DNA of 37,199 nucleotides, taken from the IMG/VR virus record IMGVR_UViG_3300030372_005973, positions 1 through 37,199 of that record; one strand, 5' to 3'. The translations under genes were made by a program, and so were the position numbers. Shown here piece by piece: positions 3,948-25,782 of the stretch. The DNA comes from a virus (Duplodnaviria > Caudoviricetes). Below the pieces are notes generated by a model. That model did not search any database, was not told the origin of the DNA, and saw only the letters and a program-made list of their open reading frames with translations. The first letter of the stretch is position 1; every line of letters begins with the position of its first letter.

Positions 3948-4867
3948 GCCCTTGGTAAATATGTAAATACACTGTTTAGTTCATCCAGTTTAAAATAACC
4001 GCTTTGCGGTAACCTATATTCTGTAAATGGCCCCACATTCCCTTGTGGATTGGTTTGGTCATAATCATAGGTTCCATAGTAGCTTGCCGCACTTTGAAAA
4101 AATACGCCGTTGGGAACAATTCCAGGAACCGCTTGAATGATATCCGTTAATTCGGTAATGGATAGCTTTCCGTTAAAATCTATTAGGTTTTTATCCTTTA
4201 AATATGTTTTAATGGCATTGATAACCGGAGTTTCATCGGTACCATCCAAACGCTGGCCCAAGTTGTTCAATACAGATGGATTGAAGTAAAGCTTATAGTT
4301 TACGCGCAATCGGTCTGCATCTTCACTGCTGGCATCAATTGTTATTCCGGAAGCTCCTTTTTGCTTCATATAAGCTTTAAACCCTGCCAATTCACCAGCT
4401 GTAAGCTTTGCTAGATCACCACCCACATTCTTTGCAGTTTTTAAACGCAAAATGCCGTGGCCATTGCGTGATGCTTCTTCCACACTGCATTTTGCCACGA
4501 TCTTTTTTGCTGCTACTTCTGCTATGGTTAAACCGGTATTGTCATATTCGTTCCATTCGGTAAGTGCCTGCCCGTGTTGGTAATTAAGCGCATAGGCTAT
4601 AATCTGCAATTGCTGAAAAGGCATTGCACGCGCAATGCGGTCATCCACATCCTGTTTATGGATAGAAAACATTTTATAAATACTCCAAGCTACGGTGGCC
4701 ACCACAAATACAATCAACCGCCAAACGCTTACTTTACTTGTGCTGGTTAGATTGGCAAGGGTAGATTGCTCATTTTCTGTCAATACCGCAGTTGCCGGCA
4801 GATCATCTGCACCGGCAGCTGTGTTTAGTATTTGGGTCTGTATGTCGTTTATTGTTGGTACTGCCAT
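3944..4867 (-). CDS. Baseplate J-like protein (Mu gp47-like)
   Basis: STSKVSVWRL N-terminal motif, C-terminal FNGKLSITELTDIIQAVPG; synteny. Confidence 0.7.
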   Translation of the reverse strand: MAVPTINDIQTQILNTAAGADDLPATAVLTENEQSTLANLTSTSKVSVWRLIVFVVATVAWSIYKMFSIHKQDVDDRIARAMPFQQLQIIAYALNYQHGQALTEWNEYDNTGLTIAEVAAKKIVAKCSVEEASRNGHGILRLKTAKNVGGDLAKLTAGELAGFKAYMKQKGASGITIDASSEDADRLRVNYKLYFNPSVLNNLGQRLDGTDETPVINAIKTYLKDKNLIDFNGKLSITELTDIIQAVPGIVPNGVFFQSAASYYGTYDYDQTNPQGNVGPFTEYRLPQSGYFKLDELNSVFTYLPRA

Positions 4868-7302
4868 TATAATTTATTTGCTATATAATTTGATAAAACA
4901 TTTGCGTATTGTTTTGCGCCAACCACTCCTGGATGAACTGAATCAGAAGCAGTTCCTTTTCTTGAATTATTATCTGCAGAAAGCACTTCTGAAGTGTCAA
5001 ATTCATAGCACAGATACCTATCCACATGTTGCCATACCGGAATAATATCAGCGCCCAATTCATTGGCCTTTTTTATAGCCATTTCTATTAGATTGGCATA
5101 AGCTGGCCAATTGTTATTCTCGTTCACGGCAATAATTGGAGCAAAACCTACTACCGCATCAGCATCAAATTGAATAATCCTGTTGTAAAATATTTCCATC
5201 CCCAAAAGCACATCATTTTTTGATTGCTCGCTTTCTCCGTTATGGTTTAGGTCATTAAATCCTAGCGCACAGGTAACTATAAGTTTTTTACCCGAGTCAA
5301 TTCCACCGATATTTGTGTTTACATATCGTTCAAAATCAAACGTATAATAATCTCCAGCATAAGTTCCAATTGCTTGGCTTTCTGTATAGTTTAATTCCCG
5401 AGCCACTCCTGCAGTTCCTCCGTTTGTTGAAGGAGTGTTTTCAAAACACCATTCTGGATTAGTTGAGATTTGTAAAGGCGTAGCCACTTTTAAAAATGGA
5501 TTTTTACTCAATGAAGAGTCTGAATTTTCTGAAGTAACATAAACAGTCCCAGAATATTCAGTGCGCAATCCTATTAAAATGGCAAACTCCCAACTAGATC
5601 TACCTTCGTTAGCATAAATATCTGAGCGTAGCCCTCTGAAAGTTGGAGCAGCTCCCCAATTATTAACTAAAGACTCCCTTACATAAGGCGTTACGGCTTG
5701 CGGTGCACTTACTCCATCGGTGATGCTGTCCCCGAAAATAAACAGCTCAGCGGTTTTACCACTAACCGATGCACGGGTCACCTTTTGGATGCTTGTATTC
5801 TTAAAATATAGATTGCTGTTATTTTTAAGCTTGTTGAATATTTTCAATGTTCCAGCATTTGTCAATTCAGAAGCTCGTAATCTTATAGAAAAATCAAAAT
5901 AATCTGAAAATTGGGATTGAATTCCCAATGAACCTGAATATCCTTCAGAGGTCAATATTGAGTGCTTAAATAGTTGCAAATTGTCTTCATCAACCAAATA
6001 GAGTTTATCACCTACAATAATTCTATCTTCACTTTCAGAAAATCCATCGGATGTGTTATGAACTATGCTTGAAAGTTGTGTTTGGGCAATTGTATATGCA
6101 ACTGGTACGGTATAAACACCGGTAATTTTATTCCAATCAATCCAAACCTTTCCGGTTATTCCACTATTGTCACTTTCCGCTAGGTTTACAATATTTACTC
6201 CAGATGGATTTTCAACCAATGCGGTATTATAAAATGCAACACCAGTAATGTGATCGTGCCCTTCTTCTTCAATGATTATATAATAAAATCCATTTGATGT
6301 CCTGTTTTTCGCAAATGTTTTTAAATAGTATTTTTTAGAAGGATCGCCTCCGTAAAGTTCAACACGTTCAATAGCTTTAAAAATATCCGGCTTATCTTTA
6401 TAAATTGTTGTATTTACTTCAAAGATTCCTTGAGTTATTGGATAAGGAGCTACCAATTTATCTTTTAAATTCTTCCTATAAATTATAGATTTAACAAACT
6501 TACCCTGTGCCAAAGTAACAGCTGATCGTCCACCAGCTGGATAAAATACTTGATCCCAATTAATCACTGCTCTGCCAACAATTGCACCTGTTGAACCAAA
6601 TAATTCTACCACCTCTATTCCAGTGGAAGGAGCAACAACCGTCCAAAAGCCATCAAAAATTTTACCCCCAGCAACTTTTGCTCCATTACTGGATTGACTA
6701 ATTTGTAAATAATTTCTTCGTATGCCTCCAGCAGAATAATAATTACCAATATATGATAAGTAGTAACGCTCCGATGAATCGTCAAAGTAAAGTTCAATAT
6801 CCAGTACCGCGGCTTTTACGTAATTTAAATTTTTACCAGTAATGGTATCATCAAAAGGAAAAAAACTATTTACACCCTGCTGTGTAAATGGCGCATCCTT
6901 TACAAAAGATGATCCATTATAAGAATAATACCCATTATTACTTTCTGTAGAGTCTTGAGTTACCGCATAGCGAGTTGTGGTAGATGGGCTCGGGTCAGCA
7001 TTTAGGTTTGTTAGGGTATTGTATCGCACAATTCCATCCATTTGATTTGCTTGAATTGCATCAATATCATCTGAATTTTCTTCTATTAAATTATATAACT
7101 CTTCACCTGTACCATCATAATCTCCAGCTGGCAATTTTGCAGCAGATTCATACATTTCCTTAACTTTTGGACCCAATATTCCAATAGAATTATAAGCTGG
7201 ATCAGAATGTTTGGTTCTTGCGTCAAGCTCCTTAATAATGGCGGCACCTTCTTCTTTAGAATAGCGCTGTCCGTTGTAATCTCTAATAGGTTGTTGTTCC
7301 AT
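4867..7302 (-). CDS. Tail spike/receptor-binding protein with C-terminal SGNH/GDSL hydrolase
   Basis: IFGDSIT (block I), EGRSSW (II), LGFND (III), DSVHP (V); located in the baseplate operon. Confidence 0.75.
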   Translation of the reverse strand: MEQQPIRDYNGQRYSKEEGAAIIKELDARTKHSDPAYNSIGILGPKVKEMYESAAKLPAGDYDGTGEELYNLIEENSDDIDAIQANQMDGIVRYNTLTNLNADPSPSTTTRYAVTQDSTESNNGYYSYNGSSFVKDAPFTQQGVNSFFPFDDTITGKNLNYVKAAVLDIELYFDDSSERYYLSYIGNYYSAGGIRRNYLQISQSSNGAKVAGGKIFDGFWTVVAPSTGIEVVELFGSTGAIVGRAVINWDQVFYPAGGRSAVTLAQGKFVKSIIYRKNLKDKLVAPYPITQGIFEVNTTIYKDKPDIFKAIERVELYGGDPSKKYYLKTFAKNRTSNGFYYIIIEEEGHDHITGVAFYNTALVENPSGVNIVNLAESDNSGITGKVWIDWNKITGVYTVPVAYTIAQTQLSSIVHNTSDGFSESEDRIIVGDKLYLVDEDNLQLFKHSILTSEGYSGSLGIQSQFSDYFDFSIRLRASELTNAGTLKIFNKLKNNSNLYFKNTSIQKVTRASVSGKTAELFIFGDSITDGVSAPQAVTPYVRESLVNNWGAAPTFRGLRSDIYANEGRSSWEFAILIGLRTEYSGTVYVTSENSDSSLSKNPFLKVATPLQISTNPEWCFENTPSTNGGTAGVARELNYTESQAIGTYAGDYYTFDFERYVNTNIGGIDSGKKLIVTCALGFNDLNHNGESEQSKNDVLLGMEIFYNRIIQFDADAVVGFAPIIAVNENNNWPAYANLIEMAIKKANELGADIIPVWQHVDRYLCYEFDTSEVLSADNNSRKGTASDSVHPGVVGAKQYANVLSNYIANKL

Positions 7303-20774: not shown

Positions 20775-23282
20775 ATGGCAAAACAAAGCAGCACACACAG
20801 TAAGATTGGTAAATCTTATGTAGCCTATACCGGCAAAATAAAAACTGGAGGTTTACGAATGACTTCCCAGGACATCAGTAATTGGGTTCGGGCCATTAAC
20901 GCGGCAAAAAGCAAAAATCCAAAACGGAAAATGCTTTATGAGCTGTATGAAAATATTATCATCGATGGCCACCTTGAGAGCGTGATGGAAAAAAGGACCG
21001 TTTCAGTGATCAACAAAAAATTGATTTTTACCGAAAAGAATAAAAGCGGTGCTGAGAATGAATTTATGCAGGAATTTGTACTTGAAACTCCTTGGATGCG
21101 CGAGCTCTTGAAAAAATCTATGGAAGCCATTTATTACGGCCATTCACTTATTGAACTTATTCCAAAGGAAGGAATGATTGATAAAGTTGTATTGGTACCA
21201 CGGCAAAATGTAATTCCGGAGACTGGCTTTGTAATGGAAGATACGGGAACCCCGGACAAAGGAGCATTTTATCGCGAGGAAGGTTTCCAATATTACAATT
21301 ACCTTATTGAAGTTGGTGGCCCTAAGGATTTGGGTAAACTAATGACAACCGCACAATACATCATTTACAAGCGTGGGGGCTTTGGTGATTGGGCACAGTT
21401 TGCCGAAATATTCGGATCACCTTTCCGTGTGGGTAAATACAATAAATATGATGATGACGTTCGCCATAATTTGGAGAAATCATTAAACGAAATGGGATCT
21501 GCTCCCTATGCTGTAATCCCGGAAGGGGCATCTATTGAATTTGTTGATAACAACCAAACTGGAAAGAGTGAGGTTTTCAGTAAGCTTATTGAATTCTGTA
21601 ATTCTGAAATTTCTAAACAGTATGTGGGTCAAACTATGACAACGGAAGATGGTTCCAGTAGAAGCCAATCTGAGGTGCATAAGGAAGTTGAGGAAGAACT
21701 CAATCTATCCGATATGATTGAAATGGAATTTATGCTCAACTGGCAATTTGTACCGAAGCTTCGGAATATCGGATATAATATACCTGAAGGAAAAATCCAT
21801 TTTGATCAAACAAAAGCCCTGCCAATTGAAAAGCGTATCGAAATCGATATGAAGGTTTCAGAAAAAGTACCGTATCCAGACGAGTACTGGTACTCTACAT
21901 ACGGAATTGATAAACCTACAGCTGAAGAAATTGCCAGAAAGCAAAAGGAAAAAGAGGAGGCTAATAAAAATAATCCGCCTCCAGCTGATCCGCCACCGGC
22001 TAATCCAAAAAAAGAAGATCCTTCAAAAAAAAAAGTAGATCCTAAAGCGGAAAAAATTCCAGATCCTGTAGAATTTGTAAACGCCTATGAGCCAACGGAT
22101 GAAGATGAGCAATACATAAAGGATTTCTTTGATAAGGCGCGCACGTATTCTCCGGAGAAATTCCAAAAGGAACTGAAAAAACTTACTTCCGGGATACGCA
22201 AACAATTTCCTACTTCCATAGGCTATATGGAACCGGACTACATTGCCGGAACCATGCTGGAGCTCAACCTTAACCGTTTCGGTTACAGCAAAACAATTGC
22301 CCAGGTATTTGAACTTAATAAAGCTTTGGATATCCAAGGGGGTTATGGAGCCTTTAGAAAGAAAGCGGTGGCCATAATGGGAAATTTTGATAATTACCTG
22401 CAGACGGAATATAACGATGCCATAGCTACCGCCCAAAATGCCGCCAATTACATACGTCAAATGAAGGATATAAAGCTTTTCCCGTATTGGCGTTATGAAA
22501 CCGTTGGTGATGACAAAGTTCGTGCATCACACGCAGCGCTCGATGGAAAAGTGTTTGCGCTGAAGGACGTAAAATCACGCCAATTCATTCCGCCAAATGA
22601 GCATAACTGCAGATGTTTTACAACCGCGTTGAGAGCAGCTGAAGTAAAAGAGGCAGATGTAATCGATTTTGAAAAAGGCAAGAAAGCCCTGGGCAAAGAT
22701 TTTGATAAAATGAAGGATAATGGTTTCTTGGCCAACCGGGGCGAAACGCTCGAGGTTTTTGATTTGGCCAAAGCCTATATCGACAAATTAAAAACGATTC
22801 CGGAAACTGAAGCTGCAGATTATTCTCTTTGGGGACTTCAGAAAATTGAAGAAATTAGAAAGACCAGGAAACTGAAAAAATTGAATTTCAATAAAACGGA
22901 TACTCCAGCTAAATTGATTAAGGATTTTGATAAAAACAAAGTTACGATTACAAACCGGGAAGTAAATATTCTAACAGATTATTCCGGACGTGAAATTGCT
23001 ATCTCTGAAACATCATTTAAAAAGCATTTAAAGGGTAATTATATAACCAAAGAAAGCCGGGACCAAATCTGGAACAATGTAAAAAACATACTTTCGGATC
23101 CTGACGAAGTTTGGTTGAATGTTTTCTCCGGAGAAAGTCAGTACGAATATTTGAAATTCTTTGATGATGAAATTATGGTTGTGGCCGTTCAAATTACAAA
23201 GGCCCGGGGAATGGAAATTAAAACCTGGTACATCAGCAGAAAAGCGGAAAACAAATTACGACGGGGAATTTTAATAAAATAG
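20775..23282 (+). CDS. Portal (DUF935/gp29) - MuF - PBECR-like nuclease fusion
   Basis: Portal motifs (WAQFAEIFGSPFR, GQTMTT, SRSQSEVH); Pro/Lys linker; MuF (LQTEY, YETVGDDKVRASH, PPNEHNCRC); C-terminal LSDPDEVW...YLKFF...KTWY...RRGILI. Confidence 0.82.
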   Translation: MAKQSSTHSKIGKSYVAYTGKIKTGGLRMTSQDISNWVRAINAAKSKNPKRKMLYELYENIIIDGHLESVMEKRTVSVINKKLIFTEKNKSGAENEFMQEFVLETPWMRELLKKSMEAIYYGHSLIELIPKEGMIDKVVLVPRQNVIPETGFVMEDTGTPDKGAFYREEGFQYYNYLIEVGGPKDLGKLMTTAQYIIYKRGGFGDWAQFAEIFGSPFRVGKYNKYDDDVRHNLEKSLNEMGSAPYAVIPEGASIEFVDNNQTGKSEVFSKLIEFCNSEISKQYVGQTMTTEDGSSRSQSEVHKEVEEELNLSDMIEMEFMLNWQFVPKLRNIGYNIPEGKIHFDQTKALPIEKRIEIDMKVSEKVPYPDEYWYSTYGIDKPTAEEIARKQKEKEEANKNNPPPADPPPANPKKEDPSKKKVDPKAEKIPDPVEFVNAYEPTDEDEQYIKDFFDKARTYSPEKFQKELKKLTSGIRKQFPTSIGYMEPDYIAGTMLELNLNRFGYSKTIAQVFELNKALDIQGGYGAFRKKAVAIMGNFDNYLQTEYNDAIATAQNAANYIRQMKDIKLFPYWRYETVGDDKVRASHAALDGKVFALKDVKSRQFIPPNEHNCRCFTTALRAAEVKEADVIDFEKGKKALGKDFDKMKDNGFLANRGETLEVFDLAKAYIDKLKTIPETEAADYSLWGLQKIEEIRKTRKLKKLNFNKTDTPAKLIKDFDKNKVTITNREVNILTDYSGREIAISETSFKKHLKGNYITKESRDQIWNNVKNILSDPDEVWLNVFSGESQYEYLKFFDDEIMVVAVQITKARGMEIKTWYISRKAENKLRRGILIK

Positions 23283-23285
23283 GAA

Positions 23286-23378
23286 AGACCTTTAAGCAAA
23301 CTCCCGTTAGGATATTTCGATGTACCGTTTCCGTGGCTTCGGTAATGTCATCTTAGTTACACGCCTGCTTAAAGGTCT
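23286..23378 (-). ncRNA. Candidate structured ncRNA convergent with the nuclease gene 3' end
   Basis: 16-bp closing stem AGACCUUUAAGCAGGC/GUUUGCUUAAAGGUCU with 2 G-U pairs only on the - strand; internal hairpins; TATATTTG promoter 4 nt upstream. Confidence 0.6.
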
Positions 23379-23382
23379 AATG

Positions 23383-23390
23383 CAAATATA
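23383..23390 (-). promoter_or_regulatory. -7 promoter box TATATTTG antisense to the late operon
   Basis: Exact TAnnTTTG followed by CA; no clear -33 element seen. Confidence 0.55.
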
Positions 23391-23396
23391 CAAACA

Positions 23397-23945
23397 ATGA
23401 GCCAAGATTATCCACATCCCTTTGGAAAATTTGCCAGTCGCTTTCGGAAGTTCCGGGGTGAACTGCCAAAGGTAGTTAGCAATATGGCCAGGAATGAGTT
23501 TGTAAGGAATTTTAAAAAGCAAGGGCACGAAGGAGAAAAGGGCGGTTTCAACAAATGGAAGCCTACCGCCAAAAAGAAAAAAGGAATTTTGATAGTTACC
23601 GGTAGACTGATGCGCAGCATGCGACCAGAGCCAAGATTAAACGAGGCACGTGTTGTTTCAAACCTTCCGTATGCCAAACCCCACAATGAGGGTTTTGAGG
23701 GCACTGTGCGCGTGCGTTCGCACAAACGCAATCGCTATGGAAAGAAAGAAGAAAAATATACTACCCGCAGCGGCAACAGTAGAACCAAAGTGGTAAACGT
23801 AAAAAAGGGAAGTGGAAAAGTAAAAGCCCATTCCCGAAAAATGAATATAGAAGCACGGCCATTTATGACAACAAGTAAAACCCTGCTTGATGACATTGAA
23901 AAACACGCCTTTGACGAAATAGAAAAAATCTGGAATAACTTATGA
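23397..23945 (+). CDS. Virion morphogenesis/neck protein (Mu gpG/tail S-like)
   Basis: NFKKQG...W, ILIVTGRLMRS, PYAKPHNEG, IEARPFM. Confidence 0.8.
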   Translation: MSQDYPHPFGKFASRFRKFRGELPKVVSNMARNEFVRNFKKQGHEGEKGGFNKWKPTAKKKKGILIVTGRLMRSMRPEPRLNEARVVSNLPYAKPHNEGFEGTVRVRSHKRNRYGKKEEKYTTRSGNSRTKVVNVKKGSGKVKAHSRKMNIEARPFMTTSKTLLDDIEKHAFDEIEKIWNNL

Positions 23946-25071: not shown

Positions 25072-25782
25072 TTATTGTTCAACATATTTCTTAATGGCAT
25101 TTTTCCACAATAAGTAACCAGAGCCATTTATATGGACTCCATCATAAGTTAAATTAGCATTTAAACTATTTGATTCATCAACAAACAATGGAAATAAATT
25201 GATATAGGTATAACCAAATTTATCTGCCAATCTTACTAAATTAGTATTTATTGCAATAATATCATCATTTTTCCTATTTAACCCGTTATCAGTAGGCAGA
25301 ATACTTTGAATAAATAATTCCGAATCTGGTGATTCCTTTTTTAAAATAGTCAGCAATCTTTCATAATCAGTCAATATTTGTTCAACACTTCTTTTTTTCC
25401 GCAAATCATTAATTCCAATCATCAGAAAAATCTTCTTAGGTTTATTGAGAATAATTCCATCGATTCTGTCAATTAGGCCGTTTATAACATCACCAGAAAT
25501 ACCTCTATTGCTTATTTTATCATTCTCAAACAATTCATTCCATTGGCAATTTTCCGTAATGCTATTCCCAACAAAAAATATACCTTCCTTATTCAATGGC
25601 AAAACTTCTAAAATGCTTCTTTTAGTATTGTAATTAAACCCATAGCCATCATTTCCTTCTGAAGTTTTTTCATTAAACTTTAATTTCACGTAATCGATGC
25701 CTCCAAAAGCAAAAAAAATGAGAATTCCAATAACCAAAAAAATAATATTAAACGCAATGGAAATTTTAAGGGCTCTTTTCAT
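25072..25782 (-). CDS. Membrane-anchored GDSL/SGNH esterase (accessory gene)
   Basis: N-terminal TM; FVGNSIT, NRGISGD, MIGIND, YDGVH motifs. Confidence 0.85.
   Translation of the reverse strand: MKRALKISIAFNIIFLVIGILIFFAFGGIDYVKLKFNEKTSEGNDGYGFNYNTKRSILEVLPLNKEGIFFVGNSITENCQWNELFENDKISNRGISGDVINGLIDRIDGIILNKPKKIFLMIGINDLRKKRSVEQILTDYERLLTILKKESPDSELFIQSILPTDNGLNRKNDDIIAINTNLVRLADKFGYTYINLFPLFVDESNSLNANLTYDGVHINGSGYLLWKNAIKKYVEQ

Follow-up and report, generated by a model that had tools for sequence, protein, structure and literature searches.

The 114-nt gap behind a portal-MuF-PBECR2 gene in a Mu-like prophage probably encodes an RNA antitoxin: judged from sequence comparison, we put at about 60% the reading that a stand-alone RNA, expressed in the lysogen, mimics the substrate of the PBECR2 RNase and blocks the enzyme directly. 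The fold of the gap, a promoter motif in reverse orientation, co-occurrence with an intact predicted active site and an RNA shape specific to the toxin class argue for this reading, as do small open reading frames (ORFs) behind other toxin tails, covariation within one clade and extra PBECR2 ends that carry elements of their own. As proposed, the small RNA would have a host-type promoter to itself, pointing against the late operon, and would be transcribed in the lysogen while the late genes are silent. The MuF fusion protein would be packed into heads and injected, its PBECR2 domain probably cutting tRNA as the structural neighbours colicin D and CdiA do, and the RNA would protect the lysogen or the virion-producing cell by occupying the PBECR2 active site.

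The gap behind the MuF fusion gene and its minus-strand element

The window, by which we mean the whole stretch of 37,199 nucleotides that was analysed, is a Mu-like prophage inside contig C12 of genome G000, and almost all of its relatives with named records belong to Bacteroidota. The left end of the prophage holds a Dam-type methylase and a thymidylate synthase, and two GDSL-like hydrolase domains lie at 25072-25782 and 4867-7302. In the fusion protein, Pfam places Portal_Mu at residues 55-378, Phage_Mu_F at 530-615 and PBECR2 at 717-834, the last with an E value of 2.7e-17 and 63.5 bits against a cut-off of 27.1; a Pfam search for ToxN gave no match in the fusion at E 0.01. The gene thus combines a MuF domain with a variable C-terminal tail in the head module of a temperate phage, as in MuF polymorphic toxins, and the tails on related MuF genes are PBECR2, LPD3, CdiA_C, ART, peptidase-like or papain-fold. 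A His together with a Thr or Ser forms the predicted PBECR active site (PMC5512222, in the part of the text available), and the window copy keeps this pair as well as a near-invariant Arg (Table 1). An AlphaFold (AF2) model of the domain reached a pLDDT of 89.7, and structural ranking put BECR RNases on top, with CdiA-CT NC101 at Z 6.6 (a modest match, rmsd 3.2 over 80 aligned residues), BrnT at 6.2 and colicin D at 6.0; since all these neighbours fall below Z 8, the likeness to BECR enzymes is supportive only. For a model of the LPD3 tail, BECR RNases also ranked first, at Z 5.7 or less. Neither model had a Foldseek match with an E value of 0.001 or less, the best for PBECR2 being E 0.06.

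No small ORF for an immunity protein lies directly behind the window fusion, where the next gene is a conserved morphogenesis gene. Genes alike in their N-termini stand behind tail-less and His-less MuF genes as well, and because the morphogenesis gene is kept behind MuF with or without a toxin tail, it is not the immunity gene. Between the stop of the fusion and the ATG of the morphogenesis gene lies the gap, at 23283-23396. Its minus strand folds at -33.0 kcal/mol (z -3.73), which none of 200 shuffles equalled, and its plus strand at -28.7 kcal/mol (z -2.65), equalled by one of 200, so the multi-stem structure that an earlier note had described here from the sequence alone is real. The 16-bp closing stem and the UCCU/GGGA hairpin (pair probabilities 0.70-0.87) proposed in that note were likewise recovered on the minus strand, and of its two inner stems GAUG/CAUC held up (probability 0.91) but UACCG/CGGUA is uncertain, at about 0.44 against about 0.5 for an alternative register. 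The note had also held that the G-U pairs are compatible with the minus strand alone; this stands for the last hairpin and for the closing stem, in which two G-U pairs leave 13 bp on the plus strand, but the plus strand as a whole also folds beyond chance.

Table 1. Features of the gap and its flanking genes in the window
Feature	Position	Strand	Basis
Predicted small RNA with a three-way junction; folded part about 93 nt, then a U-rich tail	23271..23378	-	folding
Closing stem P1, 5' arm	23363..23378	-	pair probabilities 0.85-1.0
Closing stem P1, 3' arm	23286..23301	-	pair probabilities; comparison with L028
Arm P2: GAUG/CAUC base, inner part with two competing folds	23319..23352	-	pair probabilities
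Hairpin P3 (UCCU/GGGA), abuts P1 directly	23302..23312	-	pair probabilities
U-rich run past the closing stem, overlaps stop codon; possible terminator tail	23271..23285	-	sequence
Bacteroidota -7 box TATATTTG; predicted start 23378-23377	23383..23390	-	motif
Portal-MuF-PBECR2 fusion gene, 835 aa	20775..23282	+	Pfam
PBECR2 predicted RNase domain, His751, Arg762 and Thr817/Trp818 intact	22923..23276	+	residues, Pfam
Next virion morphogenesis gene	23397..23945	+	weak Phage_tail_S match, E 2e-4

The element is a single, unrepeated unit, self-BLAST returning only its inverted stem. Rfam 15, ribozymes included, gave no match in the window at the gathering score; around the gap its best local match had E 6.7, and the gaps of 14 related loci yielded none. 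Neither ARAGORN nor Rfam called a tRNA at the window locus or at 11 related loci, among them L114, and comparison with the 36 host tRNA genes gave no informative match to the window RNA. Scans for close homologues of the RNA with DNA patterns returned only the window copy, the contig of its relative L028 and chance matches in coding DNA, which made up 4 of 5 matches in one scan and 13 of 15 in another, seven of the latter inspected. U runs follow 38 of 41 PBECR2 elements and also 35 of 56 controls, so the U tail is weak evidence; a U-tract count was accordingly dropped as a discriminator, and so was a count of long stems, for which 29 of 56 controls were positive.

The consensus box TATATTTG stands four nucleotides before the first paired base, as the earlier note had reported, and in the available part of a study of Bacteroidota promoters a spacing of 4-5 nt is typical of real promoters (PMC6847099). 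Two copies of TANNTTTGCA were seen in the window against 3.5 expected; a single box is therefore not rare, and its weight comes from its positional conservation across relatives. The window copy has no canonical -33 TTG at a spacing of 18-21 nt. Across loci (n=120), TTG is most frequent at 18-21 nt ahead of the box, with 19-23 counts per position, against at most 14 at the other spacings from 1 to 37, a peak that fits a -33 element and to which the start codons of the next gene contribute. The orientation of the promoter motif is that of the minus strand.

The layout had been likened to an element at 1474-1584. A box leading into a strong hairpin is indeed common to the two, but the latter is a single long hairpin that lies over a gene start, with no three-way junction behind a stop codon. 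There, a plus-strand TATATTTG box at 1464-1471 leads into the hairpin, which ends in a U run, and the element at 1464-1584 (z -5.2 on the plus and -8.3 on the minus strand) extends over the 5' end of thymidylate synthase, a minus-strand gene, which makes it a candidate cis-antisense or leader regulator.

Co-occurrence with the predicted active site

Since alignments of the domain by itself were too diverged for locus scans, loci were gathered through portal and MuF motifs and genome searches, not by tail or RNA, and the sample is thus independent of the tail; a single-protein search for relatives of the domain in 60 related genomes found none. Each of four motif scans gave 79 or 80 loci, the best of 97-579 confirmed. 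The table of 354 loci was reduced to 205 ORFs by collapsing identical ends over the last 60 residues and by leaving out 25 frames with less than 260 nt of downstream DNA as well as L002-L026, which are window copies, chance matches and distant loci handled separately. Tail classes were assigned by Pfam, where many CdiA_C and some LPD3 matches fell below the curated cut-off, and were extended with profiles built from those matches.

In the 57 MuF-PBECR2 rows, presence or absence of the element was labelled by eye from gap length and box, and then checked. All 11 'absent' rows have a long ORF running from the stop and no box. Among the 46 'present' rows the reverse TAnnTTTG is strict in 44 and has one mismatch in the other two, L205 and L207; in one 'present' row, L086, a long ORF also runs across the element. 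As this box count for the 'active' PBECR2 rows is built on the presence label it is circular, and we relied on the His-based counts instead.

The gap with its element was found in 46 of the 48 rows whose domain has the pre-helix His and in none of the nine without it. The tie to the nuclease domain that had been postulated thus survived its test, and as phages that lose the predicted active-site His lack the element, the latter likely encodes an RNA antidote. Both exceptions, L177 and L276, keep the His but lack the conserved Arg. If the Arg is added to the definition (the His was taken from the literature, and the Arg after these exceptions had been seen), the element is present in 44/44 and absent in 11 of the 13 other rows, two divergent rows, L173 and L245, keeping it without the conserved Arg. 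With the same His-plus-Arg definition, independent pairs on supported branches gave seven concordant cases, none discordant and one tie (p 0.016), and on the tree the element label changes eight times, with at least seven changes forced by supported branches. Close to the window, L028 has kept both His and gap, and L027, the sister to these two, has lost both. L379, which came in later, combines His and gap with a reverse box, and L380 repeats L198.

Among further phages, the His goes together with a gap of 128-254 nt in Flavobacterium phage fF4 and in four Porphyromonas phages, and Ochrobactrum phage POA1180 combines His and Ser with the same predicted three-way junction. In phages Mu and PM105 the genes overlap and no His was seen by eye in the tail; the gp30 of Mu is an inactive PBECR copy according to the available text of PMC5512222. 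Ralstonia phage YO088_1 carries a related MuF tail with His and no gap, and because it has no terminal Thr or Ser it is ambiguous as a counter-example. A scan of 12 distant loci for sigma-70-type sites was mixed, with clear minus-strand sites in three (L005, L009 and L010, scoring 11, 10 and 9 of 12) and higher plus-strand scores in six; on these sequences, a change of promoter type with the direction kept is a candidate feature of distant hosts.

RNA shapes and the proposed immunity slot across tail classes

To count boxes independently of the presence label, groups were set by the protein alone and TAnnTTTG was counted in both directions 40-200 nt after the stop. Reverse boxes outnumbered forward ones behind CdiA_C tails (33 vs 0 of 34) and LPD3 tails (41 vs 6 of 43); the counts were 6 vs 2 of 22 for other tails and 2 vs 1 of 45 for tail-less MuF genes, which, in line with the earlier expectation, lack the element. 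The supposed restriction to the PBECR2 domain was not borne out, for LPD3 and CdiA_C tails have versions of their own. After removal of near-duplicates, the median minus-strand z was -2.8 for PBECR2 elements (n=41), -3.9 for LPD3 (n=33) and -4.8 for CdiA_C (n=30), against -0.4 for controls (n=56). Directly behind 11 of the 22 'other' tails, which are peptidase-like, ART or unassigned, stands an ORF of 59-67 aa, a layout that the available part of PMC5576092 describes as protein immunity behind MuF toxins; these small ORFs behind non-nuclease tails strengthen the idea that the gap is an immunity slot.

The predicted topology differs with the tail: a multiloop in 26 of 41 PBECR2 elements, a single hairpin in 29 of 33 LPD3 elements and two separate hairpins in 28 of 30 CdiA_C elements. 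A motif similar to AUA-YCC...GGG at the position of P3 recurs in six of the 41 PBECR2 elements. In one six-member PBECR2 clade, both partners are changed in 11 of 23 pairs, a count that none of 500 shuffles matched and below which the slid controls stayed by a wide margin, although the structure was derived from the same six sequences, a bias in favour of covariation; the covariance model of this clade found three further elements, all in the gap on the minus strand. Between the window and L028, stem P1 shows two compensatory and two wobble-preserving changes. A six-member PBECR2 set had almost no consensus structure, alignments of 13 and 15 PBECR2 elements had none, which counts against a substrate mimic, and a model seeded with the window found one further element, weakly (E 0.07); neither covariance model reached beyond its own clade. 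The single covariance model envisaged for the regions behind PBECR2 therefore fails, and the elements form clade-specific families.

As to likeness to tRNA, LPD3 RNAs carry an anticodon-loop-like YUGYA in the hairpin loop in 14 of 33 cases (60 shuffles: mean 2.2, maximum 6), a motif that was chosen after inspection of the data and that resembles the loops of host tRNA-Tyr and tRNA-Cys. Single-hairpin examples with such tips are L111, L184, L228, L233, L242 and L264; LPD3 itself was not detected in G000, which is uninformative. Among PBECR2 elements no tRNA motif was recognisable, and YUGYA at the loop (3/41) stayed at shuffle level, which also counts against the mimic. For CdiA_C RNAs, a likeness to the CCA tail in 15 of 29 (shuffle mean 0.28, maximum 0.54) is weak; this reading was rejected as not significant, a plain CCA test showing no enrichment. 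At CdiA_C loci such as L054, L112, L199, L267 and L335, a short G-rich hairpin is followed by a linker that is rich in C and often CCA-like, and then by a second, separate hairpin of terminator-like form. The minus strand of L114:6200-6300, where the MuF tail is Mu gp30-like, is predicted to fold into a complete cloverleaf that has a T-loop and in which the anticodon loop is shortened.

A wider proposal, which we regard as tentative and somewhat less probable than not, is that temperate phages have a general RNA immunity to virion-delivered tRNases. Every nuclease tail swapped onto MuF, be it PBECR2, LPD3 or CdiA_C, would then move as a cassette together with a small RNA that copies the attacked piece of tRNA, whether anticodon arm, acceptor end or the whole elbow. 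If so, each RNA would point to the substrate of the toxin that it neutralises.

Competing readings and known systems

The main rival to a directly acting antitoxin is cis-antisense silencing of a type I-like kind, by which the RNA would pair with the late mRNA behind the MuF stop and, through cleavage or decay, make the toxin less leaky in the lysogen. The opposite orientation with its own promoter motif, the poor sequence conservation between clades and the similar promoter-into-hairpin layout over the start of the thymidylate synthase gene all agree with it, and it predicts an element only with a predicted active toxin equally well, which weakens the case for the mimic, as do the modest structural matches to tRNases (best Z 6.6). 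It nevertheless leaves the toxin-class RNA shapes and the anticodon-loop-like tips unexplained. The window RNA is complementary to the late mRNA in the gap by construction and to only about 12 nt of the coding end, it is locked in a 16-bp stem, and it occupies a dedicated inserted gap that is lost with the active site instead of overlapping the coding region; silencing would, moreover, presumably give no protection from a protein delivered by the virion. We consider it unlikely. Convergent type I antitoxins such as RatA/TxpA offer a precedent for such an arrangement, with a small RNA at the 3' end of the toxin gene that pairs with the mRNA of a small membrane toxin; unlike RatA, the window RNA barely reaches into the coding sequence, and the RNA shape follows the class of nuclease.

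The RNA might instead serve the nuclease as a cofactor or guide, in a ribonucleoprotein that targets host RNA and is possibly packed in the head. Tight co-occurrence with an intact predicted active site and inner arms that vary within a kept scaffold would suit this, and arm P2 has a 17-nt exact antisense match to a long host ORF (G000 C11:105447-105463), which we rejected as chance, 17 nt being reached by 7 of 200 shuffles and by 2 of 40 unrelated elements. Three tail families with differently shaped RNAs, in a slot that otherwise holds protein immunity genes, make this role improbable. We give marginally less credence to a plus-strand mRNA element, such as a terminator, a processing site or a nuclease target, that would tune MuF and the late genes, with the box incidental. 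Both strands of the elements do fold (median z -2.8 minus, -2.1 plus; window plus strand z -2.65), which is another point against the mimic, and lowering the toxin mRNA would likewise track activity. Reverse boxes, however, far exceed forward ones behind CdiA_C and LPD3 tails, TTG stands at promoter spacing, the G-U pairs and the covariance-model matches favour the minus strand, and a simple terminator scan called none in the window, on the plus strand or otherwise. Ribozymes are often found near such phage genes, and the three-way junction has a GAAA beside one arm, but neither the window nor the gap matched an Rfam ribozyme family, and a resemblance to the hammerhead was rejected as the CUGANGA core is absent. 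As for a small peptide gene, ORFs of 41-52 aa are annotated in the gap of the Porphyromonas phages, but their lengths differ between near-identical phages and no start-to-stop ORF fits inside the window gap; ribozyme and peptide gene together are the least probable of these readings. The RNA antitoxin remains our preferred reading.

Among known systems, the closest relatives are the MuF polymorphic toxins (PMC5576092), with a MuF head protein, a variable C-terminal toxin and a downstream immunity slot; in the available part of that report a small protein ORF follows 89.4% of 191 MuF toxin genes and Bacteroidetes go unmentioned, whereas behind the nuclease-type tails of the present sample stands a structured element in antisense orientation that has a promoter motif to itself. 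The fusion also resembles the PBECR polyvalent proteins (PMC5512222) in its Portal-MuF-PBECR order and its His plus Thr layout; the part of that text available suggests mRNA or crRNA as PBECR targets and proposes no antitoxin or RNA partner. In the type III toxin-antitoxin systems ToxIN, CptIN and TenpIN an endoribonuclease is neutralised by a structured RNA (PMC12283969), which is the mode proposed here. As the available portion of that source describes it, the type III antitoxin lies upstream, is co-transcribed, consists of tandem repeats, is pseudoknotted and has a terminator before the toxin; the window element is single, downstream, antisense and unrepeated, and its toxin is a predicted BECR-fold virion protein, so that in layout, repeats and toxin family the window system falls outside type III. 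With the AbiF-like toxin of a prophage, which the non-coding RNA RCd22 binds directly and neutralises in trans (10.1101/2025.04.15.648962, as far as its available text goes), it has only the proposed mode in common. A literature search that took in few subscription papers and no supplements found no RNA immunity for MuF, PBECR, LPD3 or CdiA_C tails, and a 2026 survey of BECR proteins has, in its accessible part, protein immunity only (10.64898/2026.08.28.747851).

If an RNA fills the immunity slot behind virion-borne nucleases in three or more domain families, this would account for MuF toxins with no apparent immunity gene. It would also offer testable substrates for the uncharacterised LPD3 and PBECR2 domains, likely the anticodon loops of tRNA-Tyr and tRNA-Cys in the case of LPD3, and many natural protein-RNA pairs would become available. 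Polymorphic toxin systems have been described with protein immunity, and RNA antitoxins belong to a few families of cytoplasmic defence; such an RNA would widen both pictures. RNA motif collections such as the RAGATH set may already include some of these elements, though under no such reading.

Several loci carry more than one unit. Extra, truncated copies of the PBECR2 C-terminus, every one followed by an element of its own, were seen at L029:2051-2310 (G619), at L032:2221-2600 (G426) and at L038, and in G426 the first PBECR2 ORF stands alone with 161 aa. The orphan toxin-immunity cassettes of CDI/Rhs systems resemble these extra ends with their elements, and orphan cassettes would, if the wider proposal is true, be a store of spare toxin-RNA pairs. 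Double-length gaps that apparently hold two tandem elements occur at L084, L090, L091, L371-L374, L149, L159 and L225, and tandem elements are possibly retained immunity to a second toxin variant. The PBECR2 gap elements of L003, L004 and L010 have a GC-rich motif in common, from which a pseudoknot might form; Rfam gave no match. Finally, at L018:21-1443 a truncated PBECR2 fragment, its downstream element still in place, is immediately preceded by a CRISPR array.
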